Below, piece after piece: positions 132 through 54,870 of a stretch of DNA of 64,000 nt. The DNA comes from an uncultured Candidatus Saccharibacteria bacterium (GTDB lineage: Bacteria; Patescibacteriota; Saccharimonadia; CAILAD01; GCA-016700035). The notes under the pieces were generated by a model, which ran no database searches, was not told the DNA's origin, and was given only the letters and a program-made list of their open reading frames with translations. How positions within the stretch are numbered: position 1 is the stretch's first letter; every line of letters starts with the position of its first letter. The DNA lies in the NCBI GenBank assembly GCA_964583675.1, contig CAZOVH010000001.1:145754-209753 (forward strand), written 5' to 3'. The position numbers and the translations under genes were made by a program.

Positions 132-1229
132 CTAGCTACGTAGCGGCATGATCAGATGAGTATACTGGTTATTTTTCTCTACCGGAACCACTACGCATGG
201 ATCCAGCTTATCATTCAGTCGCAACTCCACCTCATCAGTAGAGATCACTCCAAGCGCATCAATCAGAAAACGAACATTAAGAGATATTGTCGCGTCAGCC
301 CCATCAAGTTTTAGTGAAACCTCCGAAGTATTTTCGCCCACTTGAGCCGCCTCAGCGTGTAACTGAAGTGTTGAACCAGAAGCCTTTAAGGTAATAGTGT
401 GGGCACTTTCTCGAGCAAAAATTCCAGCCAGTCGAGCCGCTTGGGTAAGCTCAGTGCGCGAAGTTTTTAGCTTTGTGGCAGCTTGAGAGGGGATAATCTG
501 TGTATAATTCGGAAAATTTCCTTCAATGAGGCGAGTAACGAGTTCTACATTATCGATTGTAACCCGGGCTTCAGATTTACCGAGCTCAAACGTAATCTCA
601 GCCGAGTCTGTAGCTCCCGCCAAACGCAAGACTTCTTGCACTGTGCGAAGGGGGAGGATTACTGTGGCTTCATTACCACCAGAGGAAGGAATGCGCATTT
701 CCGCTAGACGATAACTATCAGTTGCCGCAAAGATAAGCTCATCAGCAGAAGACTTCATATAAACACCCGCGAGAACTGGTCGAGATTCATCAAGCGATGC
801 AGCCACAGCAACTTTCGTGAGAGCATCCACTATTACATCTCTTTTCAGTACTAGGTTCTGAGGAGAATCAATTGCTGGAATTGCAGGGAACTCCTCGGCA
901 GACATAGCTTGAATTTGGACTTCCGCACCAGCTGCAGCAATTTCTAACTTATTCTCATCTCCAGAAAGCATAATTTTATCACTCTGTAGGCTCTGAAGGG
1001 TTTCTAGTAGGAGCTTAGCTGGAACGCAGACGACTCCAGTTTGCTCAGCCTTACAGCCAATCGTAACAGTAAGAGCAATCTCTAAATTTGTTGCCGAAAG
1101 ACTTAAAGAGGATTTATCAGCCTTTAAAAGTATATTGCCCAGAATAGGCAAGCTTGTTCTTGAACCAACTACTCGACTGACAGTAGCTACGGCTTTCACT
1201 AAGTTTTCTTGTACAACAGATATTTTCAT
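132..1229 (-). CDS. dnaN: DNA polymerase III beta sliding clamp
   Basis: 365-aa ORF with a typical DnaN N-terminus (MKISVVQENL...ILGNILL). It sits directly downstream of dnaA on the same strand, the standard origin arrangement. Confidence 0.9.
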   Translation of the reverse strand: MKISVVQENLVKAVATVSRVVGSRTSLPILGNILLKADKSSLSLSATNLEIALTVTIGCKAEQTGVVCVPAKLLLETLQSLQSDKIMLSGDENKLEIAAAGAEVQIQAMSAEEFPAIPAIDSPQNLVLKRDVIVDALTKVAVAASLDESRPVLAGVYMKSSADELIFAATDSYRLAEMRIPSSGGNEATVILPLRTVQEVLRLAGATDSAEITFELGKSEARVTIDNVELVTRLIEGNFPNYTQIIPSQAATKLKTSRTELTQAARLAGIFARESAHTITLKASGSTLQLHAEAAQVGENTSEVSLKLDGADATISLNVRFLIDALGVISTDEVELRLNDKLDPCVVVPVEKNNQYTHLIMPLRS

Positions 1230-1352
1230 GAGTTGGTCCTTTCTTTAATCTTTTATATATACATGGAAGTGGTAGTAATGGGTGCTGTGGAAACTGGGGA
1301 GAAGTGGTTTTTAGGGGCACTGGACTTCGAGAAGAATGTTCTTTGAAGATGT

Positions 1353-1535
1353 GTGGATGGGGTGTGCAAACTGGCTCTGGATGACGTGGGGATAAGCTGG
1401 TGATTGTGGAGAACGGAAGAGAGGGTAGGGATAACATGTGGAGAATTTTGGTGGTAAACCACAATTTGCCAACACTTTTTCCGCAACTTTTCCACGAGGT
1501 TATCCTCATGTTGTCCACAGGCAAACTGTGGACAA
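1353..1535. promoter_or_regulatory. DnaA-box cluster in the dnaA-dnaN intergenic region (oriC part 2), with an AT-rich stretch at ~1240-1275
   Basis: 9-mers matching or near TTATCCACA are visible: TTGTCCACA at 1511-1519, its inverted copy TGTGGACAA at 1527-1535, TTATCCTCA at 1500-1508, TGTGGAGAA at 1405-1413 and TGTGGATGG at 1353-1361. The AT-rich run tttaatcttttatatatac next to the dnaN start could be a DNA-unwinding element. Confidence 0.5.
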
Positions 1536-1566
1536 AAACCGAAATTGTTCAGTAACTTTCGCATCG

Positions 1567-2973
1567 CTATGCCGCCATAAATTCTTGATGGATACGCTGA
1601 CGAACCTCAACTATCTCTTGAGTGACAGGGTCTTTAGATCTCATCAGGGTTTCGACTTTATCGCAGCCGTGCATGATAGTGGTGTGATCTCGCCCCCCTA
1701 AGTGACCCCCTATTTGAGGGAATGAAAGGTCGAGCTCGGAGCGCAAAATATACATTGCTATTTGACGAGGTAATACGATGTCTTTACTACGCCTTTTCCC
1801 GGAGAGGTCATCAGAACTGAGGCCATAATATTGAGCAATCTCTTCTATTACTTGCTTGGGACTTGGTTTGCGTCGGCTTCCGCCGGTCTGCGCTGGGCCA
1901 CCTAGAATTTGTGCGACAATCTCTAGTGATGGTTTTTCGTGGTGGAGTTCACAATGCATGTATACCTTGTTAAAACCACCCTCTAGCTCACGGATATTGG
2001 TCGAAATTCTCTCAGCAATAGCTTCAGCAATTTCAAGCGAGATAGAGAAATTTTTTTCTTCGGCCTTAGCCTGAATAATCGCAACGCGCGTTTCAAGGTC
2101 TGGCGGTTGAATATCTACTACCATGCCCCACTCAAATCGACTACGCAGACGCTCTTCCAGCTCGGGGATTTCCTTTGGAGGACGATCGGAACAGATGACA
2201 ATTTGCTTATTAGCTTGGTGGAGCGCATTAAACGTATGGAAGAATTCTTCCTGAGTTGTTTCTTTCTTTTTAATAAACTGAATATCATCTACAAAAAGCA
2301 CATCAACTTCACGGTATTTATTTGTGAAAGCTTCAGACTTACGCACTGAATCTACAAAGGTTTTATAAAATTCCTCAATGGTGATATACATCAGCTCGAG
2401 GTTTTTGTTGCGGCGAGTAAGCTCACCATAAATTCCCCACATAAGGTGTGTTTTTCCAACTCCAGCTGGGCCGTAGAGAAACAGGGGATTGTAGTCGGTG
2501 CCAGGCTTTTCGGCTACCAGTCGAGCGGCCGAGTGGGCTAATCGATTTGATGAGCCAACAATAAAGTTGTCGAAATTATAGCGCTCAACTAAGTGTTGCT
2601 TCTGATTGAAGAGATTTGGCTGAGGTGCAGTTTGACTTGTATTGCGGCCAAGTGATTTGCGGGGAGCTTGCATAGTATTAGGGAGTTCAAGCTCAACATT
2701 AGCGGGTTGTGCGGTGGAGCGAATAACGTAATCAATCTTTTCTATGCCTTCAATATGGTTGGCGAGGGCATCTAAAATATCGTTTTCAAACCGAGCCTTT
2801 ATTTGCGCGCTAGAAAAAGGATTGGGGACAACCAGTACGGCAGCGTTACCCTGAACCGACTCGAGAATAACGGGTTTTACAAATGTCTTAAAACTGTGAC
2901 CACTCAGGGAAACTTCAAGTTCTCCAAGTATTGTCTGCCAAATCGAATTTAAGTCAGAGCGTTGTTGCCCCAT
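1567..2973 (-). CDS. dnaA: Chromosomal replication initiator DnaA
   Basis: Walker A motif [10 protein letters not shown], an AAA+ core, and the C-terminal DnaA signature ([20 protein letters not shown]). The preferred start is the ATG at 2973 ([13 protein letters not shown]...), which has an AGGAG ribosome-binding site. The track's 3045 start would read through a perfect DnaA box. Confidence 0.9.
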
Positions 2974-3014
2974 ACTCACCACTCCTTCACATAGCTTTAT
3001 CTGTATACTACTAG

Positions 3015-3088
3015 TTTTCCACAGGCCTGCCAAGTATTTATCCACATACCACCCACAATATTCTGAGGGGCTGTGGATATGTGGACGA
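3015..3088. promoter_or_regulatory. DnaA-box cluster upstream of dnaA (oriC part 1)
   Basis: A perfect TTATCCACA lies at 3038-3046 and TTTTCCACA at 3015-3023. Inverted boxes TGTGGATAT (3072-3080) and TGTGGACGA (3080-3088) follow, all between dnaA and rpmH. Confidence 0.55.
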
Positions 3089-3133
3089 GAAGGGGTTGAA
3101 ATATCAGGAGAAAACAGGTATACTACTGCAGAT

Positions 3134-3268
3134 ATGAAACGAACTCATCAACCAAAGAAACGCCGTCGCCAACGAGTGCACGGATTTATGGCTCGTATGA
3201 AGACTCGAGTTGGTCGCGCAGTTTTGAAGCGTCGTCGACTTAAGGGTCGGTCACGCGTAGCTATCTAA
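3134..3268 (+). CDS. rpmH: 50S ribosomal protein L34
   Basis: A 44-aa ORF absent from the track because it is under 60 aa: [44 protein letters not shown]. This is the canonical L34 sequence, and it sits directly upstream of rnpA. Confidence 0.85.
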
Positions 3269-3282
3269 GAGGTAGGCAACCC

Positions 3283-3618
3283 ATGTTTGCGCGCTCACAG
3301 CGCCTCAAAAAAAGCTCTGACATTGCTCGTGTATATAAGCGGGGAAACAGAGCTTTTTCAGATCATCTAAAAGTGCACTTCCTAGCTAATCCGCGAGGCG
3401 GAATGCGTGTAGCGGTTGTGGCTTCCAAAAAGCTTAATAAGCGGGCTGTCGTTCGCAATCGGGCAAAACGCCGAGTTCGTGAGCTGTTAAAAGCAGAGCT
3501 AATAGGTGCGACGTATGCTGGATTTGATATACTGGTAACCATACAGGCGGGCATTGAAGATGTGAGCATCGATGTCTTGCGGCGAGAGGTGCAAAAAATT
3601 GTTGGAAGGATACGTTAA
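3283..3618 (+). CDS. rnpA: Ribonuclease P protein component
   Basis: A basic 111-aa protein with the RnpA pattern (KRAVVRNRAKRRVRE). It follows rpmH in the conserved rpmH-rnpA-yidD-yidC order. Confidence 0.85.
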   Translation: MFARSQRLKKSSDIARVYKRGNRAFSDHLKVHFLANPRGGMRVAVVASKKLNKRAVVRNRAKRRVRELLKAELIGATYAGFDILVTIQAGIEDVSIDVLRREVQKIVGRIR

Positions 3619-3870
3619 GTGCGACGAGCTGTACAAAAAGTAATTCGTGGTTATCAGCGCACATTATCGCCTGATCACGGGGCACTTAAAGTGTTTTATC
3701 CATATGGCTGTTGCCGGTTTTATCCCACCTGTAGCGAGTATACGCACGAAGCGATCGGTAAGTACGGAATTGCAAAAGGGGGCGCACTCGCAGTAAAGCG
3801 ACTAGGGCGCTGTCATCCATGGAGTGCTGGCGGCATAGATCTAGTGCCTGATATAGGAAAGAAAGGTTAA
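3619..3870 (+). CDS. yidD: Membrane protein insertion efficiency factor YidD
   Basis: The conserved YidD core YPTCSEY...RCHPW is present. The gene uses a GTG start immediately after the rnpA stop. Confidence 0.8.
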
Positions 3871-3873
3871 AAA

Positions 3874-4698
3874 ATGTTCGATACGATTTTTGTTCAGCCA
3901 TTAATGAATGTCCTGTTCTTTATATATGGCATAATTCCGGGTCACGATTTTGGTGTGGCGGTAATTATTATGACGGTACTTATTCGTTTTGCGTTGTGGC
4001 CAGTTATGGCGAAGCAGCTGCATTCGCAAAAGAAGATGCAGGCACTGCAGCCAGAGATTGCTAAAATCCGAGCCGAAACTAAAGGCGATAAACAGCAAGA
4101 GAGTGCTCGCCTAATGGAGCTTTATAAGGAAAAGGAAATTAACCCTCTCGCTTCGTGTTTGCCGCTCATCATTCAGTTGCCTTTCTTAATCGCGCTGTTT
4201 GCCGTGTTTAGTCGTGCAACACAGGGGATAGAAGTGGTTGCGCCTTTACTTTACGGCCCGGTGAAAAACCTTCCTTGGATTCAGCAGGTTATTCAAAATC
4301 CAAGCCTATTTTCTGCTGAACTTTTTGGAATTGTAAATCTTGCGGCTAAAAACAATATTATTCTCGCGCTCATTGCTGGTGCTACGCAGTATTACCAGGT
4401 TTGGCAGATTACTCCAAAGAATGTTGATGCTAACGACCCAAGTGCTGCTGCTAATAAGATGATGACTTGGATGTTCCCGCTTCTTACTGCTTGGATTGGG
4501 TATACATTGGTAGCTGCATTACCGCTTTATTGGGCAGTATCAAATGGGATCAGTATTTTGCAACAAACCCTGATTATGCGTGGTGAAGTTGATAAAATGG
4601 AAGAAGCCAAAGTGGTAACAAAGGTTCGTGAAGTAGGTGCTCCATCAACAGCAAAAAAGACTAAGAGTAAGGGTAAGTCTAAACGAAAGAAGGGGTAG
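3874..4698 (+). CDS. yidC: Membrane protein insertase YidC/Oxa1 family
   Basis: Multi-transmembrane 274-aa protein with a basic C-terminal tail (KSKGKSKRKKG). It lies between yidD and jag. Confidence 0.8.
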   Translation: MFDTIFVQPLMNVLFFIYGIIPGHDFGVAVIIMTVLIRFALWPVMAKQLHSQKKMQALQPEIAKIRAETKGDKQQESARLMELYKEKEINPLASCLPLIIQLPFLIALFAVFSRATQGIEVVAPLLYGPVKNLPWIQQVIQNPSLFSAELFGIVNLAAKNNIILALIAGATQYYQVWQITPKNVDANDPSAAANKMMTWMFPLLTAWIGYTLVAALPLYWAVSNGISILQQTLIMRGEVDKMEEAKVVTKVREVGAPSTAKKTKSKGKSKRKKG

Positions 4699-4702
4699 GG
4701 GG

Positions 4703-5170
4703 ATGAAAATTTCTGAAGAGCACCTAGCAAGCGCAAAACAAATTATTGCAGATATGCTCACAGCTATGGGGTTCGAAGAATTTACGGTGTATGAAGACCA
4801 GCTGGAAAGTCGGCAAATTCTCTCGATCGCTGCAGATAACCAAGCAGTTTTAATTGGTCGCAAAGGTGAGAGCCTGACGGCTTTTCAGTCATTATTTAAT
4901 GCTGTTTTAAAACACAAAGATCCTACGGCTCCTTTTATTACTATTGATATCGCCGGGTATAAAAAAGAGCGCATTGAAAAGGTGATGCGGATTGCCGAGG
5001 AGACAGCGCAAAAAGTTCGAGACTATGGCCGCGAACAAGAGATGCGGCCTATGAATGCATTTGAGCGTCGAGTGGTACACATGGTGTTAGCCGAAATGCC
5101 TGAACTGGAAACAGAAAGTGTTGGTGAAGACCCAAATCGAAAAGTAATCGTTCGTTTGAAGCAGACCTAG
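4703..5170 (+). CDS. jag: Jag/SpoIIIJ-associated RNA-binding protein (KH/R3H)
   Basis: An R3H-like C-terminus (NAFERRVVHMVLAEMPELETESVGEDPNRKVIV) and the position after yidC support the call. The likely start is ATG 4703 (MKISEEHL), which is preceded by GGGGG. Confidence 0.7.
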   Translation: MKISEEHLASAKQIIADMLTAMGFEEFTVYEDQLESRQILSIAADNQAVLIGRKGESLTAFQSLFNAVLKHKDPTAPFITIDIAGYKKERIEKVMRIAEETAQKVRDYGREQEMRPMNAFERRVVHMVLAEMPELETESVGEDPNRKVIVRLKQT

Positions 5171-10625: not shown

Positions 10626-10700
10626 TCCGGGGTAGCTCAGCGGTAGAGCAGTTGGCTGTTAACCAATTGGCCGCCGGTTCGAATCCGGCCCCCGGAGCCA
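10626..10700 (+). tRNA. tRNA-Asn (anticodon GTT), CCA encoded
   Basis: A manual fold gives an acceptor stem TCCGGGG/CCCCGGA, a D-arm GCTCAGCGGTAGAGC, an anticodon stem GTTGG/CCAAT with loop CTGTTAA, a T-arm GCCGG-TTCGAAT-CCGGC and a terminal GCCA. Confidence 0.85.
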
Positions 10701-12158
10701 ATTTTGAGATTTAGAGCACCTAGCGATTACATCAAAGGGTGCTTTCAGGTTAAAAACGAGCTTTTTGTCCTGAATTACAAGGTTCGAAAGTAGGAAACGT
10801 AAAAGTTTGGATTTTAGTGCCGCTTTCGAACTTTTGAATAGCTGAGGAGCTTTTGTGGCTATCTCTAACAGATACGAACTGGTTAACATAAAACTTTTAT
10901 CATTATGCGTTAGATTAACTAACTGTTCGTCTAGCTGCTCTTGACGAGCCTTTAGGTCCTTAACGTATTCGTCATAGTCATTGAGAGTAATACGCCCATC
11001 TAGCCTGTCCTCGTACAATACACGCAGCTTTTTCTGTATCGTATCGTACTCTGTGCGTGTTTGTTCAATAGCGTTGGCGTAGTATAGCTGCTGATTATCG
11101 TGATGATTACGCAGTTCATCAATAACGTACTTTACAATATCCTCGTTCATTTCTAGCTGACCAATCATTTCAGCAACCTGTGGCACAAGGTCCTTTTCTT
11201 TGATGTGTGATTGCTTGCACGGACCTTTGCCTCTGCTGCACTGCATATAAACGTTACCCTTAGCCGTGTACGAGGATATGCTACAACCGCAGCTGCCACA
11301 TTTCAGCAAGCCATTGAACGTATAGTCAATTTTCTGCTTTTTGGTTCTGTTAGTGCCTCTCTGGTCGTTGACAGCTTGTACTTTATCAAACATCTTTCGG
11401 CTAATTAGCGGTTCGTACTTATGAGGGTACAGCTTGCCACTGTATCTCATAGTGCCGTAATAAAACGGATTTTTAAGTATTTGTTCAACGGTGCTTTGAC
11501 CAATGGGAGTTAACTTTGCCGTGTTATTTCTTAAACCCTCTTTTTTAAGCTGGGCTGCAATGCCCCTGTACGGCGTGCCAATTAAACGCAGTTCAAACGC
11601 CTTTTTAATGTAGGGTGCTCGTTCAGTATCTAATAGTACCGTCGTTTCTTTATCGCTAATTCTGTGATTAACGTAGCCAATCGGTGCTTTACCAGGCCAC
11701 TCGCCGTCATTCAGTTTCTGTTCAAATCTGCGTTTAACATTATCTCTGATACTGTCAGAGTAGTAGCGAGCAAGTGCAACGCCAATACCGAGCCTAAATA
11801 AGTCAGGAGCACCAGAGTTTTTGGTGACGCATAAGTTATCAGATGGGAAGTGTATCTCAATCTGACCGTCCTCACGCAGCTTGTTTAGGGTTTTAACTTC
11901 GTCTGTTGAACTGTCCCTTGTGTAGCGGTCTATTTTGTCAAACACGACAATACAATTTTCTGGGTAATTGCCTATACTATCAACAATCTTGCTAAACGTT
12001 TTGCGATTATCTTTATATGCACTCTCATCAAACTCAAACAGCTCATAATCGTAGTCTTTATCCTTTGCGTACTTTTCAAGCCGTAAAACCTGTGCAGGTA
12101 ATGCTTGTCTCTGTTCTGGGTCTGATACTCTTGCTATTAAAAATGCCTTAGTTTTCAT
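10659..12158 (-). CDS. Large serine recombinase (integrase)
   Basis: The N-terminal resolvase catalytic motif FLIARVSDPEQ is followed by a recombinase domain and a Cys-rich zinc ribbon (CGSCGCS...C...C). The last ~14 codons (RGPDSNRRPIG) are the antisense strand of the tRNA-Asn T-arm. Confidence 0.8.
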   Translation of the reverse strand: MKTKAFLIARVSDPEQRQALPAQVLRLEKYAKDKDYDYELFEFDESAYKDNRKTFSKIVDSIGNYPENCIVVFDKIDRYTRDSSTDEVKTLNKLREDGQIEIHFPSDNLCVTKNSGAPDLFRLGIGVALARYYSDSIRDNVKRRFEQKLNDGEWPGKAPIGYVNHRISDKETTVLLDTERAPYIKKAFELRLIGTPYRGIAAQLKKEGLRNNTAKLTPIGQSTVEQILKNPFYYGTMRYSGKLYPHKYEPLISRKMFDKVQAVNDQRGTNRTKKQKIDYTFNGLLKCGSCGCSISSYTAKGNVYMQCSRGKGPCKQSHIKEKDLVPQVAEMIGQLEMNEDIVKYVIDELRNHHDNQQLYYANAIEQTRTEYDTIQKKLRVLYEDRLDGRITLNDYDEYVKDLKARQEQLDEQLVNLTHNDKSFMLTSSYLLEIATKAPQLFKSSKAALKSKLLRFLLSNLVIQDKKLVFNLKAPFDVIARCSKSQNWLRGPDSNRRPIG

Positions 12159-12209
12159 AGTTATTCCTTTCTCTGTTACTATGTACCATTATATACCAAT
12201 AGATAACAA

Positions 12210-13340
12210 TCATATAGAGCCTTTAATTTGGTCCATCTTTGTTGGCTCAAATTGTTCAAGCATTTGGTTAATGCCTGCTATTGTCTTGTATTGGACCTTT
12301 TGTGTTGGTTTTGTAAGTGGCTTTAGCCGTGTCCAAGCGTGTTTGCCGAAACGGTCCTCAAACAACGCTCTAACGTGACGCTGGTCGCTCGTTGTTAGCA
12401 GCAAAGCCATACCAAGCCGTGCAGCCGCTTGTTGCGGACCTTTCAGCTCATCTGTCTGTAAAATGTTAGCCAGCACCTTATACGGCTCATTACTGTCTAA
12501 CGCCAGTTTGGGCAGGTTAGTGAAAAAATTTTGCCAGTGGTGTTGCAACAACAGTTTTGACAGTTCGGTTGAGAACACGTTTTGAAATACCAGCGGCTTA
12601 TCAAATCCAACTGCTTTGAGTGCGTCAGTTATTTTCCTTTTGCCGTTCAGTCGAACTTCATAACGCATAACTGCTGTGGGCTGTGTCCGAGCTAACTGGT
12701 CTAGCAAATCAAGCTGAACAAAGTTGTCTTTTTCCTGTGACCGTTTTTCGCTAACTTTAGATTGCCTTAGGTCAGCCAGTTTGTCGTATATAGCAATATC
12801 AAGCGAGTTAGTATGAACGTGCAGCACATAACCGCCATTACGGAAGTTCGTGTTCTGTATATCGTAGGTTTTGCTTATGTCAGCTGTTCGTAGCATTTGC
12901 AACACAGCCGAGCAGGACGTATAGTCATCAAACACAAAGTTTTTGCTGTAATGTAACGCCCTTATCTCTGCTTGTTCAATCTGCTTGCTAAACAACCAAA
13001 CGCCCATTTCTCGGAGTGTTTGCTGTAATTTACTAACAACTGACGCAAAGTCGTTATCAATCAGCTCGTCAAAATTATTACCAAATGCAATCTTTGGCAG
13101 GCTCAACTCAATTGCCAACTCGTAACTAGCACGTTTGTAGCCTCTGGGACGCTGCGTATAGGTCAGACGTGGCTGATACTTGCCGAGCTTTTTAGTAGCT
13201 GCTGACGGATTAGCCATTGCTTTAAAATAGCCAAAGTAGTCAGGGTTTATGCTATCCAGCGTCGGTTGAAAGTTGGCTCTTGCGTGCAATGGTCTGTCCA
13301 TTTTTACTACCAGCTTTATTGTGTCTATCATTGTCATCAC
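12210..13340 (-). CDS. Hypothetical protein, possible replication initiator of the element
   Basis: A 376-aa protein with no family recognisable by eye. It sits between the integrase and SpoVG. A YDK...K stretch (IAIYDKLADLRQSK) hints at a rolling-circle Rep-type tyrosine motif, but this is speculative. The start may be the internal MDRPLH. Confidence 0.35.
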   Translation of the reverse strand: MMTMIDTIKLVVKMDRPLHARANFQPTLDSINPDYFGYFKAMANPSAATKKLGKYQPRLTYTQRPRGYKRASYELAIELSLPKIAFGNNFDELIDNDFASVVSKLQQTLREMGVWLFSKQIEQAEIRALHYSKNFVFDDYTSCSAVLQMLRTADISKTYDIQNTNFRNGGYVLHVHTNSLDIAIYDKLADLRQSKVSEKRSQEKDNFVQLDLLDQLARTQPTAVMRYEVRLNGKRKITDALKAVGFDKPLVFQNVFSTELSKLLLQHHWQNFFTNLPKLALDSNEPYKVLANILQTDELKGPQQAAARLGMALLLTTSDQRHVRALFEDRFGKHAWTRLKPLTKPTQKVQYKTIAGINQMLEQFEPTKMDQIKGSI

Positions 13341-13599
13341 GTCCTTTAAAAAGCTGCTGGCACTCGGCTACAACGGCTTGTTCAATCAGGTTGCCAACGT
13401 CCCTGCTAATTGGGTGGTATAGGTTTAACTCTTTACTACCGATTTTCTTGGTTGGGTAAGTAATACGGTATGAGCCGTCTAAACGGCTATGCACGCCAAT
13501 TGAGCCAAGATATAGGCTGTTGTCTATTACTACGCTGGCAAAGGCTAAAAGACCGCTAGTCGGCTTTATCGGTATGATATTTACCTCGCTAATTGTCAT
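13252..13599 (-). CDS. SpoVG-family nucleic-acid-binding protein
   Basis: ISEVNIIPIKPTSGLLAFASVVIDNSLYLGSIGVHSRLDGSYRITYPTKK...YHPISRDV matches the SpoVG core pattern (RA.ASI..D..FV.H.I.V..G..G.FV.MP...DIAHPI). The preferred start is MTISEV at 13599. Confidence 0.7.
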   Translation of the reverse strand: MTISEVNIIPIKPTSGLLAFASVVIDNSLYLGSIGVHSRLDGSYRITYPTKKIGSKELNLYHPISRDVGNLIEQAVVAECQQLFKGRDDNDRHNKAGSKNGQTIARKSQLSTDAG

Positions 13600-13912
13600 T
13601 GCAATTCTCTTGACACTGTTCTGTTTTGCACGGACCTTCAAGCAATAGACTAATTTGTGCTCTTATCGCACGCATTTGCTTGTGGTCCAATTCGCTCAAA
13701 AGAGACTTAATTTTATTTGAGGTTCCATCGCCTGTTATGTCAGCAGGTAAGTAACCCTCTGCGACTTTCACAAGGTGTTCAACCTCGTTAATTTCAGCGT
13801 TCCAAACAATTACTTGGGCGGCATAAAGTCGGCAATCGTTGCACAACGCCATCACAGTATCAGCTACCCTTTGTTTTGTTTCATCGTTCATCATCAATCC
13901 TTTCTTGTTCAT
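13589..13912 (-). CDS. Hypothetical small protein with a CxxC pair
   Basis: 107-aa ORF lying in the same minus-strand gene string as the SpoVG and Rep-like genes of the element. No family assigned. Confidence 0.4.
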   Translation of the reverse strand: MNKKGLMMNDETKQRVADTVMALCNDCRLYAAQVIVWNAEINEVEHLVKVAEGYLPADITGDGTSNKIKSLLSELDHKQMRAIRAQISLLLEGPCKTEQCQENCNDN

Positions 13913-14048
13913 TTAGTTCAAGGTCCATTTCTATCAGCACGTCAAAATAGCCAACGAGGTTGGCTGTTGCTACGTCATCTCGACCAAGCTCGGCAAGAAA
14001 CTCTTGCAAGCTGACGATGTTTGGCTGTTGGCTATTTTGCTGCTGCAT
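13905..14048 (-). CDS. Possible small acidic protein (47 aa)
   Basis: Manual translation of the minus strand gives MQQQNSQQPNIVSLQEFLAELGRDDVATANLVGYFDVLIEMDLELNEQERIDDER. It fills the gap between two island genes and is below the track's size cutoff. Confidence 0.25.
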
Positions 14049-14106
14049 ATAGCCATTACGACAAAACAGGCGTTTAGCCGAGTTTAAACCTGTGGATAAT
14101 TACAAT

Positions 14107-15357
14107 TTACAGATTAGTGCGATACTTAGGGTTTATGTATACCTCATAGTTCAAAAGTATAAAAAACTCAGTAATTTGACCTTTTGTGGCAGCTGCAATC
14201 TTGATGTTTAGAGCCTTAACGTAGCCTTTGATGATGTTATTGAAACTGTCCTCATTGCCATCAGTACCAGCGTGCATTGTAAATACCAGTTCCATAAGAT
14301 GGGTAACGTCCCATTTTTTCGTAAAGTTATCTATTGAACTAAAGAAAAAATCACAAAATCTGGCTTGTTTTGAGCTGCGTTGCACATCTACTTTGTAGCC
14401 TTTAAGTATGAGTTGTGAGCTTTCAATCTGAAACTTAATATCAGCGTAAGCAATTTTTGTAATGCCACTTTCCAACTTACCCATTACATACTGTTTTACT
14501 TCTGCAATCTGATTACTATTTGCTTTCAATTCTGTAAATAAAAGGTCGAGTTTGGCGGTGCTTACAAGCTGATAGTCATCGTCTATACGCTTAGTACGGC
14601 TTGTGTCACTAACAATCGTTACATTACCGTCTCGGTCAATTACCTCAATGTCATCAAGGTTAATCGTTTCAACAGGCGTAAACTTTGCAAATGTCGTACT
14701 TATAGAGGCTAGGTCAACTGCAAATGCCTTAACAATCATTTCGCTCATTGAATTTATGCTTTCAAACAGACTGCGTGTAAGGTTGGCGGCGTGAGCGGTT
14801 GCCATAAATGACTGCCCAATTATCCCATAAGTGATAGCCAGTTTTTGCTGCATAGCAGCAATTTGCTGAACAGGGACAATCAGGTTTGTCTGGAACTTTT
14901 GAGTTGCTAAGGCAAATCGCTGAGCGTCCTGTGCAATACGAGCCATTGGCAGGGTTTCTAGTGAGTTGAATATCTTGGCAATGCCTGAAAAGTCGTACTG
15001 AGCCGATATACGCTTGGCTATTTCAGCAGCCATTACATTTGCTTGTTCGAGCTGCTTTGCTTGTCTTGGTGTTAATAAATTGGGGTCTTTTTTCAGTAAC
15101 TCTTGCCACTCATCAACAGACAAGCCAGAACGATATTTTTTAGCGTCTAAGTTTAGGTCGTATTTATTTTGGTTGGTTATACGCCTATCACGAATAACGT
15201 GTGCTGGCGTAACCTCTGTCGGTGCTTGTTTAACAGGTAGAGTTATCTCTACTGGTTTAATGTTGTCGGTCTTTGGCTTTTTGACAGGCTGCTTAGCCGC
15301 TTTTGATTGCGGCTTTTTCTTGGGTTGTTTAGGCTGCTTGTCATCTTTTTTCATCAC
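14107..15357 (-). CDS. Hypothetical cargo protein with a lysine-rich N-terminus
   Basis: A 416-aa protein beginning MMKKDDKQPKQPKKKPQSKAAKQPVKKPK, with no recognisable domain. It is transcribed divergently from the excisionase gene. Confidence 0.5.
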   Translation of the reverse strand: MMKKDDKQPKQPKKKPQSKAAKQPVKKPKTDNIKPVEITLPVKQAPTEVTPAHVIRDRRITNQNKYDLNLDAKKYRSGLSVDEWQELLKKDPNLLTPRQAKQLEQANVMAAEIAKRISAQYDFSGIAKIFNSLETLPMARIAQDAQRFALATQKFQTNLIVPVQQIAAMQQKLAITYGIIGQSFMATAHAANLTRSLFESINSMSEMIVKAFAVDLASISTTFAKFTPVETINLDDIEVIDRDGNVTIVSDTSRTKRIDDDYQLVSTAKLDLLFTELKANSNQIAEVKQYVMGKLESGITKIAYADIKFQIESSQLILKGYKVDVQRSSKQARFCDFFFSSIDNFTKKWDVTHLMELVFTMHAGTDGNEDSFNNIIKGYVKALNIKIAAATKGQITEFFILLNYEVYINPKYRTNL

Positions 15358-15427
15358 GTTTTTCCAAAACTGCTCTATCGCAGGTGTTCACATTCTTGTA
15401 TCATAATAGTATCAATTGTGAGGTTTT

Positions 15428-15616
15428 ATGTCATCAAAAGATTTACCAGAATTACTAACACTGAAACAAGCGAGCGAACTGCTGCAAGTACACCCAAACA
15501 CATTACGCAACTGGGATAACAACGGCACTCTTAAAGCTGTCCGTATTGGTGGGCGTAGTTTACGACGTTATAAAAAAAGCGATTTATTAAAATTTGTAGA
15601 ACAACCAAAAAAGTAA
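15428..15616 (+). CDS. Excisionase-family HTH DNA-binding protein (Xis/AlpA-like)
   Basis: LLTLKQASELLQVHPNTLRNWDNNGTLKAVRIGGRSLRRYKKSDLLKFV matches the classic excisionase HTH pattern (LLT.KEAAELLGVS..T..RW...G.LPA.RIG.R..R...DL..FL). Confidence 0.7.
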   Translation: MSSKDLPELLTLKQASELLQVHPNTLRNWDNNGTLKAVRIGGRSLRRYKKSDLLKFVEQPKK

Positions 15617-15631
15617 TGAAAGGGGTTAATT

Positions 15632-16261
15632 GTGTCCTTATTTGATAAATTAAAAGACGCTAGTGATAAAGCAGGTAAGTCAGCCGCTGGTGCATACGAA
15701 AAGCATAAAGAAAAAGTAGCTGCGACTAAAGAGGCTCGTGGCAATACGCTCAAAGCAGTATCACTAGATTATATGGGCGGATACAGCGACTACAAAAAAG
15801 CAAAGGGCATACTAACGTTTTACGAGAAACAAACTGAGTTTAGTAGTCCATTATCAACAAAGTTCACAATCATCAATGACCAAGTATCTAACATTGTTAT
15901 TGAGGGCAAAGATGATGTTAGCAGACGTGTAACAGTAACTCGGCTATTAGCGGTTGGTATTTTTGCATTTGCCTTAAAAAAGAAAAAGAAAGAAAAAGAG
16001 GCATACCTGACGGTAGAGTTGTCAGACGGTCAAGAGGTTATATTTTTTGTTGATAACAATTCGCCTATGGAATTAAAGACTAAACTAGCAAAAGTTGTAT
16101 CTTTGGTTAAACAGGCTGGCGTATCTAGTAGTAACGCCCAAGCAGTACAAAACCAGCAAGTTAGCGTAGCAGATGAGCTGGCAAAACTGGCAAAACTCAA
16201 AGAACAGGGCGTAATTACCCAAGATGAGTTTGATAAGAAAAAGACTGAGTTGCTGGGCTAA
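15632..16261 (+). CDS. SHOCT-domain protein
   Basis: The C-terminal SHOCT motif ELAKLAKLKEQGVITQDEFDKKKTELLG is present. The N-terminal ~130 aa form an unassigned beta-rich domain. Confidence 0.6.
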   Translation: MSLFDKLKDASDKAGKSAAGAYEKHKEKVAATKEARGNTLKAVSLDYMGGYSDYKKAKGILTFYEKQTEFSSPLSTKFTIINDQVSNIVIEGKDDVSRRVTVTRLLAVGIFAFALKKKKKEKEAYLTVELSDGQEVIFFVDNNSPMELKTKLAKVVSLVKQAGVSSSNAQAVQNQQVSVADELAKLAKLKEQGVITQDEFDKKKTELLG

Positions 16262-16281
16262 AAACGCTTGGTCATTTTGCA

Positions 16282-16297
16282 GCCGAAAAAATTCGGC
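16282..16297 (+). terminator. Candidate hairpin terminator after the SHOCT gene
   Basis: GCCGAA-aaaa-TTCGGC hairpin followed by ATTTCAT. A second hairpin, GGGG-taata-CCCC, lies at ~16334-16350 beside the convergent Ltp gene. Confidence 0.4.
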
Positions 16298-16345
16298 ATT
16301 TCATAGGTGGTATCCCAAGTCTAGTAACTAAGGGGTAATACCCCC

Positions 16346-16852
16346 CTAGTCGTTGAGGTGTGCTATGGCGTAATCAGCCTCAGCTGCGGTAAATTGACCG
16401 CCTTGTGCTGATACCAGTTGGTCACGAACACCAGCTGGTGACAGGTGCAAATCATTTTGATATGTCTTTGCCTGAGCAAGAGCGTTTGCGTTCCAATCTG
16501 CTTTTACGTTATCTACGGCGTATTGTGCTGCCTCTGGCTTAAACTTACCGCCATATTCAGAGACCAGTTGGTCATATAAACCTTTTTTTGACAGGTGTAA
16601 ACTGTTTGCATAAGTATCAGCCTGTGCGAGAGCAGATTTGTACTCAGCTGGTACGGCAGGTTCTTTCTTTTCTGCTGGCTTAGCCTCAGCTGCTTGCTTG
16701 GTTTCACTACTCGCTGGCGTGCTGTTATTTGAGGTATTTGTGTCAGTACCGCCACTTGCTGCACTTACAATAACAATCAGTAAGATAAAACCGAGTATTC
16801 CTGATAAAACCTTGTGTCTCTTAAACCAATTACCTTGTTTTTTATCTGCCAT
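16346..16852 (-). CDS. Ltp-family (phage superinfection-exclusion 'host cell surface-exposed lipoprotein') tandem-repeat protein, membrane-anchored
   Basis: An N-terminal transmembrane segment is followed by an S/T/A/E-rich linker. Two Ltp repeats follow: KSALAQADTYANSLHLSKKGLYDQLVSEYGGKFKPEAAQYAVDNV and ANALAQAKTYQNDLHLSPAGVRDQLVSAQGGQFTAAEADYAIAHL. Confidence 0.7.
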   Translation of the reverse strand: MADKKQGNWFKRHKVLSGILGFILLIVIVSAASGGTDTNTSNNSTPASSETKQAAEAKPAEKKEPAVPAEYKSALAQADTYANSLHLSKKGLYDQLVSEYGGKFKPEAAQYAVDNVKADWNANALAQAKTYQNDLHLSPAGVRDQLVSAQGGQFTAAEADYAIAHLND

Positions 16853-16953
16853 TACAAACTATCCTTTCATTTGATTATAGTTATCGTCAGTATATACCAT
16901 TTGCTTACATTTGTCAGTGGTTACTTACAATTGTAAGCAATACGCTAAAAGAT

Positions 16954-17181
16954 GTGAAAACATCATCTGTCGAACACATCTATACCGAACTAGGCAAGCG
17001 TATTGTTAAGGCACGTAATGATAAGGGTATGAGCCAAGAAAAACTAGCTGCTACTAGCGGAATTGACCGTTCACATATGGGGTTTATAGAGCAAGGTCGT
17101 AGAAAGCCAACACTATCTACACTGTTTAAAATTGCTAAGTCGCTTGATATGTCGCTGGAACAACTGTTTAAAGGTTTATAG
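16954..17181 (+). CDS. XRE-family HTH transcriptional regulator (cI/Cro-like)
   Basis: The HTH_3 pattern is visible: GMSQEKLAATSGIDRSHMGFIEQGRRKPTLSTLFKIAKSLDMSLEQLF. Confidence 0.7.
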   Translation: MKTSSVEHIYTELGKRIVKARNDKGMSQEKLAATSGIDRSHMGFIEQGRRKPTLSTLFKIAKSLDMSLEQLFKGL

Positions 17182-17491
17182 TCCGCCAAACGACAATGCA
17201 AGGTCAGGCTCATATTGTCTGACGGTTGCTGCTAAATCTTCAAATTCGTAATCCTCAAAGTTATTGCTGGCAGTTCGTAGAGTTTCCACTAGACGGAGCC
17301 AAAGAAAATGCTCGAGCCTTGCGTTCGGGCTTTTTCTTTGGAACTGAGTGCTTGCGAAGTCGAACCGTAGGTTCGTCGTAGCGAAGCGAAGAAGACGTAG
17401 TCGCTATCCGGCATGGGAACATAATATGTGATAGAGAATTCCATATAACTTTTATGTCACTAGACTCACTGATTTATGCAATAATCAAAGC

Positions 17492-44124: not shown

Positions 44125-45087
<963 letters not shown>

Positions 45088-45103
45088 TATAATTATCTAC
45101 TAG

Positions 45104-45928
45104 ATGGAACACGTTGTAGTCATTCGTCCTAAGAAACGACTCGCAATCGACTGGAAGGAGCTCAAGGAATACCGCGAGCTCTTCTTCTACTTCGCTTGGC
45201 GTGATGTAAAGGTGCGCTACAAGCAAACCGCAATTGGTATTTTGTGGGCAATTTTGCAGCCATTTATTCAGATGGTGGTATTTACGCTGTTCTTCAATAA
45301 AGCTGTGGGTATAGAGACGGGCTCAGCCGTTCCTTATGCAATTTTTTCTTATACTGGCTTATTATTCTGGAACTATTTCTCGCAGGCTTTGCAGCGTTCG
45401 GCAAATAGCCTTGTAGATAATCAGGCTGTTGTAACAAAGGTGTATTTTCCGCGCATTATTCCACCAATTTCCTCCACGATTGTCTCGTTTATAGATTTTT
45501 TGTTTGCGTCGATTATTTTTATAGGCCTCATGATTTATTTTCAGTTTGTACCAACTCTCTTGGGTGTACTTCTAGTAATTCCAGCTATAATAGTGACCTT
45601 CCTAGCTGCTACTGGACCGGGCCTCTTCCTAGCTGCAGTTAACGTGAAATACCGTGACGTGAAGCAGGCATTGCCGTTTCTTATTCAACTAGGCCTGTTC
45701 CTTACGCCAGTTATCTATCCGGTTACAGCCATCCCCGAGCAGTACCAGTGGCTACTGTATTTAAACCCAATGACAGGCGTGATTAATGCAATGCGTGCAA
45801 GCCTACTTGGAGCTGGAGAAATTAACTGGGCCCTTACGGCGCTTTCGGTTGCGATGGCAGTTATTATGTTTATTGGTGGATTGTATTACTTCAAGGGTAG
45901 AGAAAAGGAATTTGCGGATATTATATGA
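45104..45928 (+). CDS. wzm: ABC-2 polysaccharide export permease (Wzm/TagG-like)
   Basis: A 6-TM ABC-2 permease lying upstream of, and coupled to, the Wzt-like ATPase gene. Confidence 0.75.
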   Translation: MEHVVVIRPKKRLAIDWKELKEYRELFFYFAWRDVKVRYKQTAIGILWAILQPFIQMVVFTLFFNKAVGIETGSAVPYAIFSYTGLLFWNYFSQALQRSANSLVDNQAVVTKVYFPRIIPPISSTIVSFIDFLFASIIFIGLMIYFQFVPTLLGVLLVIPAIIVTFLAATGPGLFLAAVNVKYRDVKQALPFLIQLGLFLTPVIYPVTAIPEQYQWLLYLNPMTGVINAMRASLLGAGEINWALTALSVAMAVIMFIGGLYYFKGREKEFADII

Positions 45929-47208
45929 GCAAGCCAGCTATAGAAATTAAGGACCTATCTAAGGCATATATGATTGGTCATGAGCGAGAAGCCATGGCTG
46001 GCACGATGACGTTTCGGGATTCGCTGGTAAATATTGCCCGTAAGCCTTATGAGCTTTTTACTGGCCATCAACTAAAAAAAGAAAAATTCTGGGCGCTAAA
46101 GGATGTCAATCTAGAAATACAACAGGGTGATGTAGTTGGCATTATTGGTCGCAACGGATCGGGGAAATCAACTCTTCTCAAAGTTTTGTCTCGCATAGTG
46201 GAACCAACCAAAGGTGAAGTGATAATGCGCGGCCGCGTCGCGAGCTTGCTTGAGGTAGGAACAGGTTTTCATCCTGAGCTTACTGGACGTGAGAATGTAT
46301 ATTTTAACGGTGCCATTCTTGGAATGACCCGTAAGGAGATACAGTCTAAATTTGATGAGATTGTAGCATTTTCAGAAGTTGAGAAATTTTTGGATACGCC
46401 TGTAAAATTTTATTCTTCTGGCATGTATGTGCGACTTGCGTTTGCAGTTGCGGCTCATCTTGATCCGGATATTCTCATCGTTGATGAAGTGCTAGCTGTA
46501 GGGGATGCGGCTTTCCAAAAGAAATGTTTGGGGAAGATGAAAGATGTGGCTGGGCAAGGGCGAACCGTATTATTTGTTAGCCATAGCATGGATTCAGTAC
46601 GGAAGTTGTGTACAAAGGGGCTTTATATCAAGGCAGGAGAACAGCAAGGTACGATCGAGGATATAGATAAGGCTATAGGGAAATATACAAACGATATATC
46701 TACAGAGCTGAGTACCGAATGGGTTAAAAATGATGAGAATTTTTTCTCGAATGATTGGTATGATATTAATAGTATGAGAATTACTGACTCTAAGTTTAGT
46801 ACTATTAAGAAAATACCTACAAAAGATAGTGAAGCATGGATTGAGATAGAGGGTACCTTCAATAAAATTAGTCCAGAATTGAAGCTGGGTTACACCCTTT
46901 ATTCTGATGAAGGGACAATTCTCTATACTTCTGTGCAGACTGATATTGAAGAGAAAAAATGGCCAAAACTTAAGACTGGTACTTTTAAGCTTCGTTCAAG
47001 ATTACCTTTTTCAATGCTGAAGACAGGAAAGTATATTTTAGAGATGAATTCAAGTATTCATAATAAAAAAATGCTCAGTGGCTTAGGGCTTGAAGCCCCT
47101 AGTATTAGCTTTGAGATTATTGGAGATGCCAGTAAATCCCCCCACTATGTATTGTCTCGCGAGGGGGTGATTGCACCTATAATAACGTGGGAGTATAAAA
47201 ATGATTAA
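45925..47208 (+). CDS. wzt: Polysaccharide export ABC ATPase (Wzt/TagH-like) with a C-terminal ~180-aa extension
   Basis: Walker A GRNGSGKST and the signature YSSGMYVRLAFAVA are present. The beta-rich C-terminal domain is analogous to the glycan-binding module of O-antigen Wzt. Confidence 0.8.
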   Translation: MSKPAIEIKDLSKAYMIGHEREAMAGTMTFRDSLVNIARKPYELFTGHQLKKEKFWALKDVNLEIQQGDVVGIIGRNGSGKSTLLKVLSRIVEPTKGEVIMRGRVASLLEVGTGFHPELTGRENVYFNGAILGMTRKEIQSKFDEIVAFSEVEKFLDTPVKFYSSGMYVRLAFAVAAHLDPDILIVDEVLAVGDAAFQKKCLGKMKDVAGQGRTVLFVSHSMDSVRKLCTKGLYIKAGEQQGTIEDIDKAIGKYTNDISTELSTEWVKNDENFFSNDWYDINSMRITDSKFSTIKKIPTKDSEAWIEIEGTFNKISPELKLGYTLYSDEGTILYTSVQTDIEEKKWPKLKTGTFKLRSRLPFSMLKTGKYILEMNSSIHNKKMLSGLGLEAPSISFEIIGDASKSPHYVLSREGVIAPIITWEYKND

Positions 47209-47893
47209 TCGCCATTATATAAGAAGAAAAGCTAGTGCATTGCGTCATCATACCGAAAAGCATGAAGAAGGAATAATCCCGAAAAGCCTGATAGCTAGGT
47301 ATCTGCCCCCAAATCCTGTAATACTGGAGGCGGGAGCACATGTGGGGACCGATACTTTGCAAATGTGCAGTATGTGGCCAGATGCGAGAATACATGCCTT
47401 TGAGCCTGTGTCAGACATATTCGCGCAGCTAGAAAAAAATACCAAGCATTTATCGATGGTCAACCGTTATAAGCTAGGGCTGGGCAATAAGACTGAACAG
47501 AGAAAAATATATGTTAGTAGCGGCGCCTCAGATGCGTCCAGTTCTCTGCTAAAGCCAAAAAAACATCTAGAGATAAACCCTAAGGTTAAGTTTCAGTCGA
47601 TGGAGAACATTCAAGTAACAACGATTGCCGATTGGGCACGTAAGGAGGGGATTAATAAGGTTGACTTCATGTGGCTCGACCTACAGGGCATGGAGCTGCC
47701 GGTTCTGCAAAATACTGGTTCAATTTTACAGGGCGTGAAGATGATTCTCGCAGAAGTAAGTCTGATTGAGACTTATGAAGGTGTTTCAATGGCAGATGAC
47801 CTTACGAGATTCCTCGAACAGGAGGGTTTTAGGGTCTTGGTTGAGGAGATGCCTTACCCGGATATGGGTGACATTTTATATGTACGGAAATAG
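47201..47893 (+). CDS. FkbM-family SAM-dependent methyltransferase
   Basis: ILEAGAHVGTDTL...FEPVSDIFAQLEKN...YKLGLGNKTEQRKIY is the FkbM pattern. Confidence 0.7.
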   Translation: MINRHYIRRKASALRHHTEKHEEGIIPKSLIARYLPPNPVILEAGAHVGTDTLQMCSMWPDARIHAFEPVSDIFAQLEKNTKHLSMVNRYKLGLGNKTEQRKIYVSSGASDASSSLLKPKKHLEINPKVKFQSMENIQVTTIADWARKEGINKVDFMWLDLQGMELPVLQNTGSILQGVKMILAEVSLIETYEGVSMADDLTRFLEQEGFRVLVEEMPYPDMGDILYVRK

Positions 47894-47896
47894 TAC

Positions 47897-48739
47897 ATGT
47901 TGACTGTTGAATTTCATGACAAGCTTTTCGAAGGCTATAGTAGTGCAGCTCGAGGAGATTTGAAATGCAAACCCAAGCATATTTTTTTTGATCGAACAGC
48001 TAATCATAGCATTGCCTTATTTACTGATGAGAGTCTTGATGAGGTTAACTCATCAAAAGCGGTAATAAATTTAGCATGGCTAGTAGAGTCTCCTGATTTT
48101 AAAAAGAATATTTATAAAAAAATGAGGAAGAAAAAGGTCTACTCGAAGTTTGATCGGATATATACGTTCGACTCTGCGCTACTCGCAAAAGATCCAAGAT
48201 TTGTGATGCTGCCTGTTGGTGGCAGTTGGATTGATGACAAAAACTGGCGAATATACAATAAATACCTCAACCTATCAATGATTGCATCACGAAAAAAACA
48301 GTTGAAAGGGCATAGGTTGCGCCATGAAATTATTGGAAAATTTGCCGATTACCTCGATGAGGTATATGGTAGTGGGTATTTAGCATTTGATAATAAGATA
48401 GATGTCATGAAGCCCTTTAGATATAGTATTGTTATCGAAAACGGCAGGCGTGATTACTATTTTACGGAGAAATTGATCGATTGTTTTGCGGTGGGCACTA
48501 TACCTATTTATTGGGGCTGCCCCAGTATTGGGAAATTTTTCAATCCGGAGGGAATACTCCCTTTTAGGACTTTGCGTGACCTAAAAAAAATCTTAGCTAA
48601 TATTTCAGAGGAAGACTATTTTTCCAGGATGGCAGCTGTTAAAGATAATCTAGCTCGTGCAAAGGATTATGTGATGCCAGAGGATAATATGTATGAACTT
48701 ATGAAGAGAGATCAGCTGTTCTCAACCGAGTTAACATAG
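47897..48739 (+). CDS. GT10-like alpha-1,3/4-fucosyltransferase
   Basis: [46 protein letters not shown] matches the GT10 C-terminal motif (FENS...YVTEK..DA....IPIYWG.P.....FNP). Confidence 0.6.
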
Positions 48740-48750
48740 GGGGGTATATT

Positions 48751-49308
48751 TTGAAGCAATTAATAAATCTAATGCTTAGCAAGTTTGGCTACAATATAAA
48801 GCGTATACCTCAGGTTTCTGACAGGGATCTCCTAAACGGCACTTACCCAGGGGTTACATTTATAGGTCCATTAGATAATTACAATATTGGTGAAAAAGTT
48901 ACTATTGGCTTAGGGAGTATACTTTTTGCTTGTGAAAATATAACAATTGGTGACAATTCGATGATTGCAGTAGGTGTAATCATTCACACGAGTACGCATG
49001 ATTATGCAGCACATCCAATGTGGAAGTATCGTATTGATCGCCCTGTATATATTGGTGATTATTCATGGATTGGAGCGGGGGCAATAATACTGCCAGGGGT
49101 TAGAATTGGTAGAAATGCTGTAGTTGGGGCTGGCTCAGTTGTTACTGCGAATGTTCCAGAAGGAGCTATAGTTGCGGGAAATCCAGCGAGGATAATTAAG
49201 CATCGAAATAAGGCGGACTACCTCAAAAAGCCTGATATTATTGAGTTTGAGGAAGCAATTACAATAAAAGAGCCTTTCGGTGTTAACAAGATAAAAAGAA
49301 GGAGGTAA
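48751..49308 (+). CDS. Left-handed beta-helix (hexapeptide) O-acetyltransferase, WcaF/Mac-like
   Basis: Hexapeptide repeats are present ([15 protein letters not shown]...[31 protein letters not shown]). The gene has an apparent TTG start. Confidence 0.7.
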
Positions 49309-49312
49309 AGAG

Positions 49313-49966: not shown

Positions 49967-49971
49967 TTGAT

Positions 49972-52635: not shown

Positions 52636-52686
52636 TGTGCTTGTACTTAGTTGCTTGTTAATAGGGTTTATTACAGGAGTATATTG

Positions 52687-53862: not shown

Positions 53863-53864
53863 AC

Positions 53865-54824: not shown

Positions 54825-54870
54825 GAATCCTCCTTGGTTATCTGAACATTAGGTATAATACACAGTATAT

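Follow-up and report, generated by a model that had tools for sequence, protein, structure and literature searches.

What is a protein of the superinfection-exclusion type doing in the genome of an uncultured Candidatus Saccharibacteria bacterium? The question is raised by a minus-strand ORF at 16346..16852 of a 64,000-nucleotide stretch of one contig (hereafter the window), which the original prediction described as two tandem Ltp-like repeats of ~45 residues, hung from a transmembrane (TM) helix instead of a lipobox and located inside an integrative element. Judged by its sequence and its structural model, the ORF is a genuine and ordinary member of the Ltp family, and its product is probably a surface-displayed protein of the phage-exclusion type borne by an integrative episome. 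The carrier element, with a recombinase ORF that spans attP, is the more original part of the locus than the ltp gene itself.

The ltp ORF begins with an ATG, has the ribosome-binding site AAAGGA upstream and codes for 168 aa. The protein matches Pfam PF07553 (Lipoprotein_Ltp) in two stretches with an E-value of 2.3e-41 and 140.1 bits, against a gathering cut-off of 23.2 bits; PHROG 4980 (“superinfection exclusion”) matches residues 4-168 (E 1.3e-53), and PDB entry 4eqq_A, the Ltp of phage TP-J34, aligns with residues 66-166 (E 2.4e-21). The internal repeats share 24 of 41 identical residues and score 115, compared with 22 ± 4 in 2000 shuffles (z ~22). Repeat 1 occupies codons 66-116 (16505..16657, minus strand), with the best Pfam stretch at residues 70-116, and repeat 2 occupies codons 117-166 (16355..16504, minus strand), which contain the second stretch. 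An AlphaFold2 model built on 40 homologues predicts a helix at residues 14-31, disorder at 33-68 and then two three-helix units with pLDDT ≥ 94 (residues 69-166), the helices lying at 69-85, 89-97 and 106-115 in the first repeat and at 120-135, 139-147 and 156-164 in the second. In a Foldseek search of the PDB with this repeat domain, 4eqq_A/B were the sole significant matches (E 1.7e-8, rmsd 1.0-1.1 Å, target-normalised TM 0.88-0.94, 48% identity), the next match having an E-value of 0.8. The ectodomain carries a net charge of -4, compared with -3 for TP-J34 Ltp. The NCBIfam search gave no meaningful match for the protein, and none of the PADLOC models matches it. The two Ltp repeats and the Ltp repeat fold of the original prediction are thus borne out by the Pfam, PHROG and structural matches; of the two outcomes that it named as refuting, a missing match to the Ltp HMM and a divergent repeat fold, neither was obtained.

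The nearest genomic relatives of the protein, at 96% to 57% identity, come from Candidatus Saccharibacteria MAGs; next are those of other Patescibacteria and, after these, those of Actinobacteria such as Bifidobacterium, Microbacterium and Clavibacter. The ectodomain shares 60-70% identity with its counterparts in actinobacterial genomes and phages. Our literature search found no report of Ltp in Saccharibacteria or the Candidate Phyla Radiation (CPR). Taken by itself, the gene adds this lineage to a well-populated family and brings no new mechanism.

The attachment of the repeat domain rests on the N-terminal part of the protein. Codons 1-31 (16760..16852, minus strand) encode a basic N-region, with a net charge of +4 over residues 1-14, followed by the hydrophobic helix KVLSGILGFILLIVIVSA, and together these form a conserved “NWFxRHK(V/I)L(T/S)” anchor module. 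Codons 32-65 (16658..16759, minus strand) encode a predicted disordered spacer rich in S/T/A/N/E/K/P (S5 T5 A6 N3 E4 K4 P3) that has pLDDT < 50 at residues 33-57 and is hypervariable in the alignment. The 19-residue Kyte-Doolittle mean is 2.58 at residues 15-33 and at most 0.45 beyond residue 40. The protein contains not a single cysteine, hence it has no lipobox and the type II signal peptide with a lipobox cysteine of the TP-J34 type is absent, which makes “lipoprotein” an inapplicable name for the predicted product. The hydrophobic segment, the low-complexity linker and the missing lipobox were all part of the original prediction and hold; membrane anchoring, as opposed to cleavage of a Sec signal peptide, is the part of that claim that we infer.

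The claim that a TM anchor in place of a lipobox is an oddity, in contrast, falls away once the relatives are considered. Among the 120 best homologues at least 118 are without a lipobox, the exceptions being P0114 (LAGC) and arguably P0116 (LFAC), and so do 12 of 15 Ltp homologues on IMG/VR viral contigs, the remaining three having one. Among the characterised phages, PFR1 and TP-778L encode an Ltp with a lipobox, and BigBern1, phi16 and phiRg507T2_3 encode one with a TM helix (with an additional Zn-ribbon in phiRg507T2_3). The predicted TM-anchored, lipobox-free form is accordingly the majority among the relatives and a common anchor variant, so that the name “lipoprotein” misdescribes the larger part of the family. 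N-terminal membrane helices and lipid anchors have been described as alternative display modes of Sie proteins (PMC3952083). A separate scan for lipobox patterns across subsets of loci L001-L080 returned 3 of 452 ORFs, all weak candidates, in Saccharibacterial loci and 17 of 873 in actinobacterial loci, a difference that is not significant; the tendency would fit a scarcity of canonical lipoproteins in the Saccharibacterial lineage, and a literature search returned nothing on Lgt or LspA in Saccharibacteria.

The same N-terminal segment could be read as a cleavable Sec signal peptide that is cut after VSA or SAA, at about residue 31-33, releasing the Ltp domain into the wall space or the medium as a soluble decoy. 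Its h-region spans only ~15-18 residues and runs into small residues at -3 and -1 (VSA|AS), and a comparable cluster (GAAG, SAAG or SAAS) recurs at a conserved distance of 13-17 residues after WFxRHK in 86 relatives, such that a short helix of ~18 residues followed by a plausible signal-peptidase I site (VSA-AS or SAAGGG) might allow the protein to be released. Moreover, TP-J34 Ltp in a soluble form that lacks the anchor retains activity and acts over a wider range (PMC3952083, citing Bebeacua 2013). The uncharged run, however, extends over 22 residues (15-36) and is long enough to span a membrane, and a long flexible spacer fits a tethered protein best. Furthermore, homologues P0089, P0110 and P0119 have a cytoplasmic Zn-ribbon immediately before this WFxRHxxLT helix module, where cleavage would discard a folded domain, and this arrangement argues for a true N-in anchor. 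We therefore regard release as unlikely and favour the tethered form; its positive-inside N-region, together with the lone hydrophobic helix, suggests extracytoplasmic display of the repeat domain.

The gene lies within an integrative element at ~10701-17301, inserted at the 3′ end of a tRNA-Asn (GTT) gene (10626..10700, plus strand; identified by ARAGORN and by Rfam tRNA at 73.5 bits), which serves as the chromosomal attachment target and whose last 7 nt are the recombination core. The core GGAGCCAA occurs at the left end of the element as attL (10694..10701) and at the right end as attR (17295..17302). In independent copies of the element in other genomes (L001, L003, L005, L006), DNA similarity to the window runs from the tRNA 3′ end to 17302-17304; three of these (L001, L003, L005) mark attR at this stop, and the copies in L001 and L005 are flanked by non-tRNA sequence bearing the same core. 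Five sister strains (L128-L133 loci) have an empty site, with the order glycosyl hydrolase, tRNA-Asn, AHSA1, that is identical to the window up to base 10700 and contains the intact and identical tRNA-Asn. Because its ends are set by the independent copies, the shared core, the empty sites and the circular-junction contigs described below, we take the element to be 6,601 bp long. A longer att repeat, formed by duplication of the tRNA 3′ half, was considered and rejected: a search that allowed up to 3 mismatches in the final 25 nt of tRNA-Asn recovered the tRNA alone, and the real repeat is the 7-8 nt core.

The element excises, and a free circular form exists. Contig L111 is collinear with the predicted circular junction over 1,297 bp, and the two ends of contig L110 (8,685 bp) overlap by 30 nt and close it into a circle. 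The element is placed among those mobilised by large serine recombinases (LSRs) by four features: the LSR gene at one of its ends, the short att core that both ends share, the empty sites and the attP contigs L110 and L111. The location of ltp inside an integrative element, as originally proposed, is confirmed by the independent copies, the empty sites and the circular-junction contigs. Two features of the surroundings may be recorded here. A 189-bp spacer (17302-17490) with a terminator-like hairpin at 17310-17330 separates attR from the AHSA1 gene; it lies outside the element, as the other copies stop at 17302, and is absent from the empty-site strains, in which the tRNA terminator region at this place is a different one of 128 bp. 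Window positions 132-4698 correspond to the chromosomal replication-origin region (dnaN, dnaA, rnpA, yidD/yidC, with synteny to L128), and the episome is therefore integrated ~7 kb from dnaA.

The backbone of the element runs from the recombinase through Rep, a SpoVG-family protein, two small proteins without a family and a 416-aa protein to a divergent Xis-like HTH_17 gene, and is followed by cargo, ltp and HTH_3. The recombinase (10659..12158, minus strand) has Pfam Resolvase, Recombinase and Zn_ribbon_recom domains and matches the PHROG 95 integrases (E 1e-72). In the integrated state it is 499 aa long, with its last ~11-14 codons antisense within tRNA-Asn, and in the circle it is 527 aa long, an ORF of this length being called on L111. 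The alternative C-terminal, exon-like tail of 39 aa (...RLVETLRTASNNFEDYEFEDLAATVRQYEPDLALSFGGL) is encoded at 17176..17294 (minus strand), is in frame only in the circle, and is acidic and conserved in L001, L003 and L005. As attP lies inside the recombinase gene, the integration state switches the C-terminus of the enzyme, and this switch could bias the directionality or stability of recombination.

Downstream in this order lies a putative 376-aa rolling-circle Rep of the G2P/Phage_CRI type (12210..13340, minus strand; likely start ATG at 13334), an assignment made by transitivity: the protein has no direct Pfam match, and PF05144 is matched above threshold by P0152 and P0170, which are homologous to it over the full length at 46-49% identity. 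The SpoVG-like protein (13252..13599, minus strand) is 115 aa long from an internal ATG and matches PF04026 at 31.9 bits against a cut-off of 29.6, with the same call in L110 and L111. A small backbone protein of 100-107 aa (13589..13912, minus strand) is conserved in L003, L005, L006 and L109-L111 and has no family matches. The 416-aa protein (14107..15357, minus strand) has a K/P-rich N-terminus and 48 homologues, all unannotated; its AlphaFold2 model has a pLDDT of 47, with only residues 315-416 modelled confidently, and gave no Foldseek match below E 0.1. Sequence searches of the PDB found no relatives of the 376-aa Rep or the 416-aa protein, and PADLOC had no match for Rep or for the element proteins without a family. 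The HTH_17/MerR-type small DNA-binding protein (15428..15616, plus strand) matches Pfam HTH_17 (E 6e-14) and PHROG excisionase families, holds the same position in all family members and is a candidate recombination directionality factor.

Beyond it lies a 209-aa cargo protein (15632..16261, plus strand) with a C-terminal SHOCT domain (Pfam E 9e-9) and matches to PHROG 888/2700; its gene is present in L003, L006, L109 and L119, and L110 and further copies have different genes in its place. The ltp gene comes next and is divergent from a gene for a 75-aa Cro/CI-type HTH_3 regulator (16954..17181, plus strand; Pfam HTH_3 E 1e-13). The control region between the two (16853..16953) contains promoter-like sites on both strands, which are consensus matches only, and a 20-bp palindrome TTACTTACAA/TTGTAAGCAA at 16921-16940 that is a candidate operator. 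An HTH_3 gene co-occurs with Ltp in 19 of 80 loci fetched through Ltp and in all close copies. Lying 450 bp from attR, ltp adjoins the 3′ end of the recombinase gene in the circle. We also considered an inovirus-type prophage and rejected it, as the G2P-type Rep is assigned by transitivity only and none of the element ORFs encodes a Zot/pI-like morphogenesis ATPase or a coat-like family; in the 416-aa protein neither a TM segment nor a Walker motif was seen and no fold match was obtained. Compared with a PICI-like phage satellite, the element has Int, regulators and Rep, and no packaging function was recognised, three of its backbone proteins matching no family.

What else this element family carries was assessed in siblings fetched via Rep homologues and not via Ltp, which removes the ascertainment bias. 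The cargo slot, from the Xis-like gene to the element end, holds Ltp in L109-L111, type III restriction-modification (R-M) systems in L124 and L125, a HinfI-like type II R-M system in L127, a reverse transcriptase module (RVT_1, AAA_33, APH and DUF1045) in L126 and a MazG-like and pentapeptide pair in L114. Methyltransferase, GDSL lipase and SDR genes are also found among the cargo of sibling elements, L110 among them. In L123, the same slot contains a protein (4522-5085) that is divergent from HTH_3 and in which the same NWFxRHK anchor and S/T spacer as in the window's Ltp (MAKEKSTNWFVRHKILSVIIGLFVIGVIASAAGGG...) precede DUF4352. This is the domain found in Mpr, a membrane-bound protein that confers phage resistance on mycobacteria (PMC9262609, PMC12596739), and its presence on the anchor indicates that predicted ectodomains are swapped as modules on a common display module. 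Because the siblings carry R-M systems, a reverse transcriptase and DUF4352 at the same position or on the same anchor, the slot can be regarded as a defence hot spot and the anchor as a reusable display module. By its gene content the episome family is a shuttle of defence and accessory genes in Saccharibacteria, and the sibling cargo supports a defence role for Ltp. We found no description of this element family in the literature.

From homology and context together we infer an exclusion function and propose the following mechanism. The ltp gene, situated in the episome cargo slot and paired divergently with the Cro/CI-type regulator, would be expressed from its own promoter-like sites. The basic N-terminus of the protein would stay in the cytoplasm and the hydrophobic helix (~14-31) would insert N-in/C-out as a signal anchor, such that the S/T-rich spacer of ~35 residues would hold the two three-helix repeats on the outside of the membrane. 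If it acts as TP-J34 Ltp does, the acidic repeat domain would there bind the tape-measure protein (TMP) in the tail of an adsorbed siphovirus and block the passage of DNA; acidity has been implicated in TMP binding by Ltp (PMC3952083). The episome would thereby provide its Saccharibacterial host and itself with entry-level protection against phages. The position of the gene is consistent with this proposal: in the tailed phages PFR1, phiRg507T2_3, phi16 and TP-778L, ltp lies between the repressor and the integrase, and in the window it lies between the Cro/CI-type HTH gene and the attP/recombinase, as in phage lysogeny modules. The implication of the original prediction that phages infect this lineage agrees with published work and to that extent is not new, as prophages and CRISPR-linked phages of Saccharibacteria and CPR have been reported (PMC12455944, PMC12911398) and a characterised phage binds and weakly infects TM7x (PMC13578794). 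Counting against the exclusion reading are the missing PADLOC match, the lack of a tailed prophage or tape-measure gene beside the Saccharibacterial Ltp genes examined, and the alignment of Saccharibacterial copies, in which the repeat domain is highly conserved and the linker varies, a pattern that does not resemble the diversification expected of a tight arms race.

Another reading is that Ltp serves the element itself, by excluding incoming DNA of related episomes or DNA taken up by competence, and not tailed phages. The episome that carries it resembles a rolling-circle plasmid and has no recognisable virion genes, and in close relatives (Rep ≥ 93%) Ltp and HTH_3 are constant and the other cargo varies. 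At four loci with Saccharibacterial Ltp genes (L011, L012, L025, L038), the large ORFs matched no virion PHROGs and revealed neither a tailed prophage nor a tape-measure gene; serine integrases recur there instead. Nevertheless, the phage tape-measure protein is the only experimentally known target of an Ltp domain (PMC3952083), and the more distant siblings swap Ltp for R-M, reverse transcriptase and Mpr-like DUF4352 genes, which fits general phage defence better, and we consider such element-directed exclusion improbable. Still harder to credit is a surface role unrelated to defence, for instance in adhesion to, or interaction with, the actinobacterial cell on which the epibiont lives. In its favour, Saccharibacteria rely on contact between their own surface and the host, conservation of the repeat domain is strong, and Ltp-like domains also occur in surface proteins that are not from phages, such as pneumococcal CbpL (PMC5137146). 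Against it, ltp is absent from the empty-site sister strains and is therefore accessory, the siblings of its carrier bear defence systems, and the two-repeat-only architecture is that of phage Sie proteins, not of multidomain adhesins.

Returning to phage exclusion as the preferred function, we can ask which phages would be excluded. The Actinobacteria to which Saccharibacteria attach harbour prophages that can bind to these epibionts and infect them weakly (PMC13578794), and, as noted above, the window ectodomain is 60-70% identical to actinobacterial ones; for these two reasons the protein may protect against siphophages of the host. We put forward, as a speculative picture that we hold with low confidence, that ltp is one interchangeable cartridge of a previously undescribed group of Saccharibacterial mini-episomes (defined by an attP-spanning LSR, a G2P-type Rep and a SpoVG-like protein) whose slot is a defence hot spot and whose single anchor displays either Ltp or DUF4352, and that it may guard the epibiont specifically from its host's siphophages. 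Elsewhere in the window, a region of lower GC (44128-56031; 0.38-0.43 vs ~0.46) contains a surface-polysaccharide cluster with genes for an NAD epimerase, an ABC transporter ATPase, an FkbM methyltransferase, a GT11, two GT2 and two GT4 glycosyltransferases. The cluster may have been gained by horizontal transfer as a variable locus for surface glycans, and would thus be a potential determinant of phage receptors. The ltp gene marks an active, excising family of 6.6-9 kb episomes in a phylum in which genetic tools and natural vectors are scarce, and it offers a simple entry-level defence candidate now that a first CPR-targeting phage system (TM7x/Xhp1) is available.

Several known systems resemble parts of this locus. 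Actinomycete ICEs of the pSAM2 type are likewise small, target tRNA genes and excise to a circle, and they encode a tyrosine Int, Xis and a rolling-circle Rep; the window element differs from them in its large serine recombinase and its putative G2P/Phage_CRI-like Rep, and no FtsK-like transfer protein was detected in it. Mpr of Mycobacterium smegmatis shares with the proposed role of Ltp a membrane association and an anti-phage action at the stage of entry, and its DUF4352 domain is found on the same anchor in L123. The ectodomain folds of the two proteins are nevertheless unrelated, and Mpr is proposed to act as a nuclease/NTPase on injected DNA (PMC9262609, PMC12596739), as opposed to the TMP binding proposed for Ltp.

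The Ltp proteins of TP-J34 (4EQQ, the PF07553 prototype) and TP-778L share with the window protein two tandem three-helix repeats, an acidic ectodomain and a Ser/Thr-rich spacer, the last described for the TP-J34 prototype (PMC3952083), and their genes likewise belong to an integrating element, in which they lie beside a Cro/CI-type regulator gene and the integrase/att site. TP-J34 Ltp is, however, a lipoprotein with the lipobox LAAC and a diacylglyceryl-Cys anchor, in contrast to the Cys-free basic N-region and hydrophobic helix of the window protein; TP-J34 is a tailed temperate phage with a tyrosine integrase, whereas the window carries a 6.6-kb serine-recombinase/rolling-circle episome without recognisable virion genes; and it is for the prototype that function has been tested. 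The PHROG 4980 proteins of BigBern1 (Bifidobacterium), phi16 (Corynebacterium) and phiRg507T2_3 (Ruminococcus) come from tailed phages of 36-58 kb that belong to Actinobacteria and Firmicutes, none of them to the CPR, and their N-terminal motifs (KKP-YKRxWFW or GGC-KWG) differ from the NWFxRHKVL of the window protein. In overall architecture they nonetheless resemble it: the N-terminus is basic and may include a Zn-ribbon, one TM helix and a low-complexity spacer lead to the two repeats, and a lipobox is absent. Their ectodomains are 51-64% identical to that of the Saccharibacterial Ltp.
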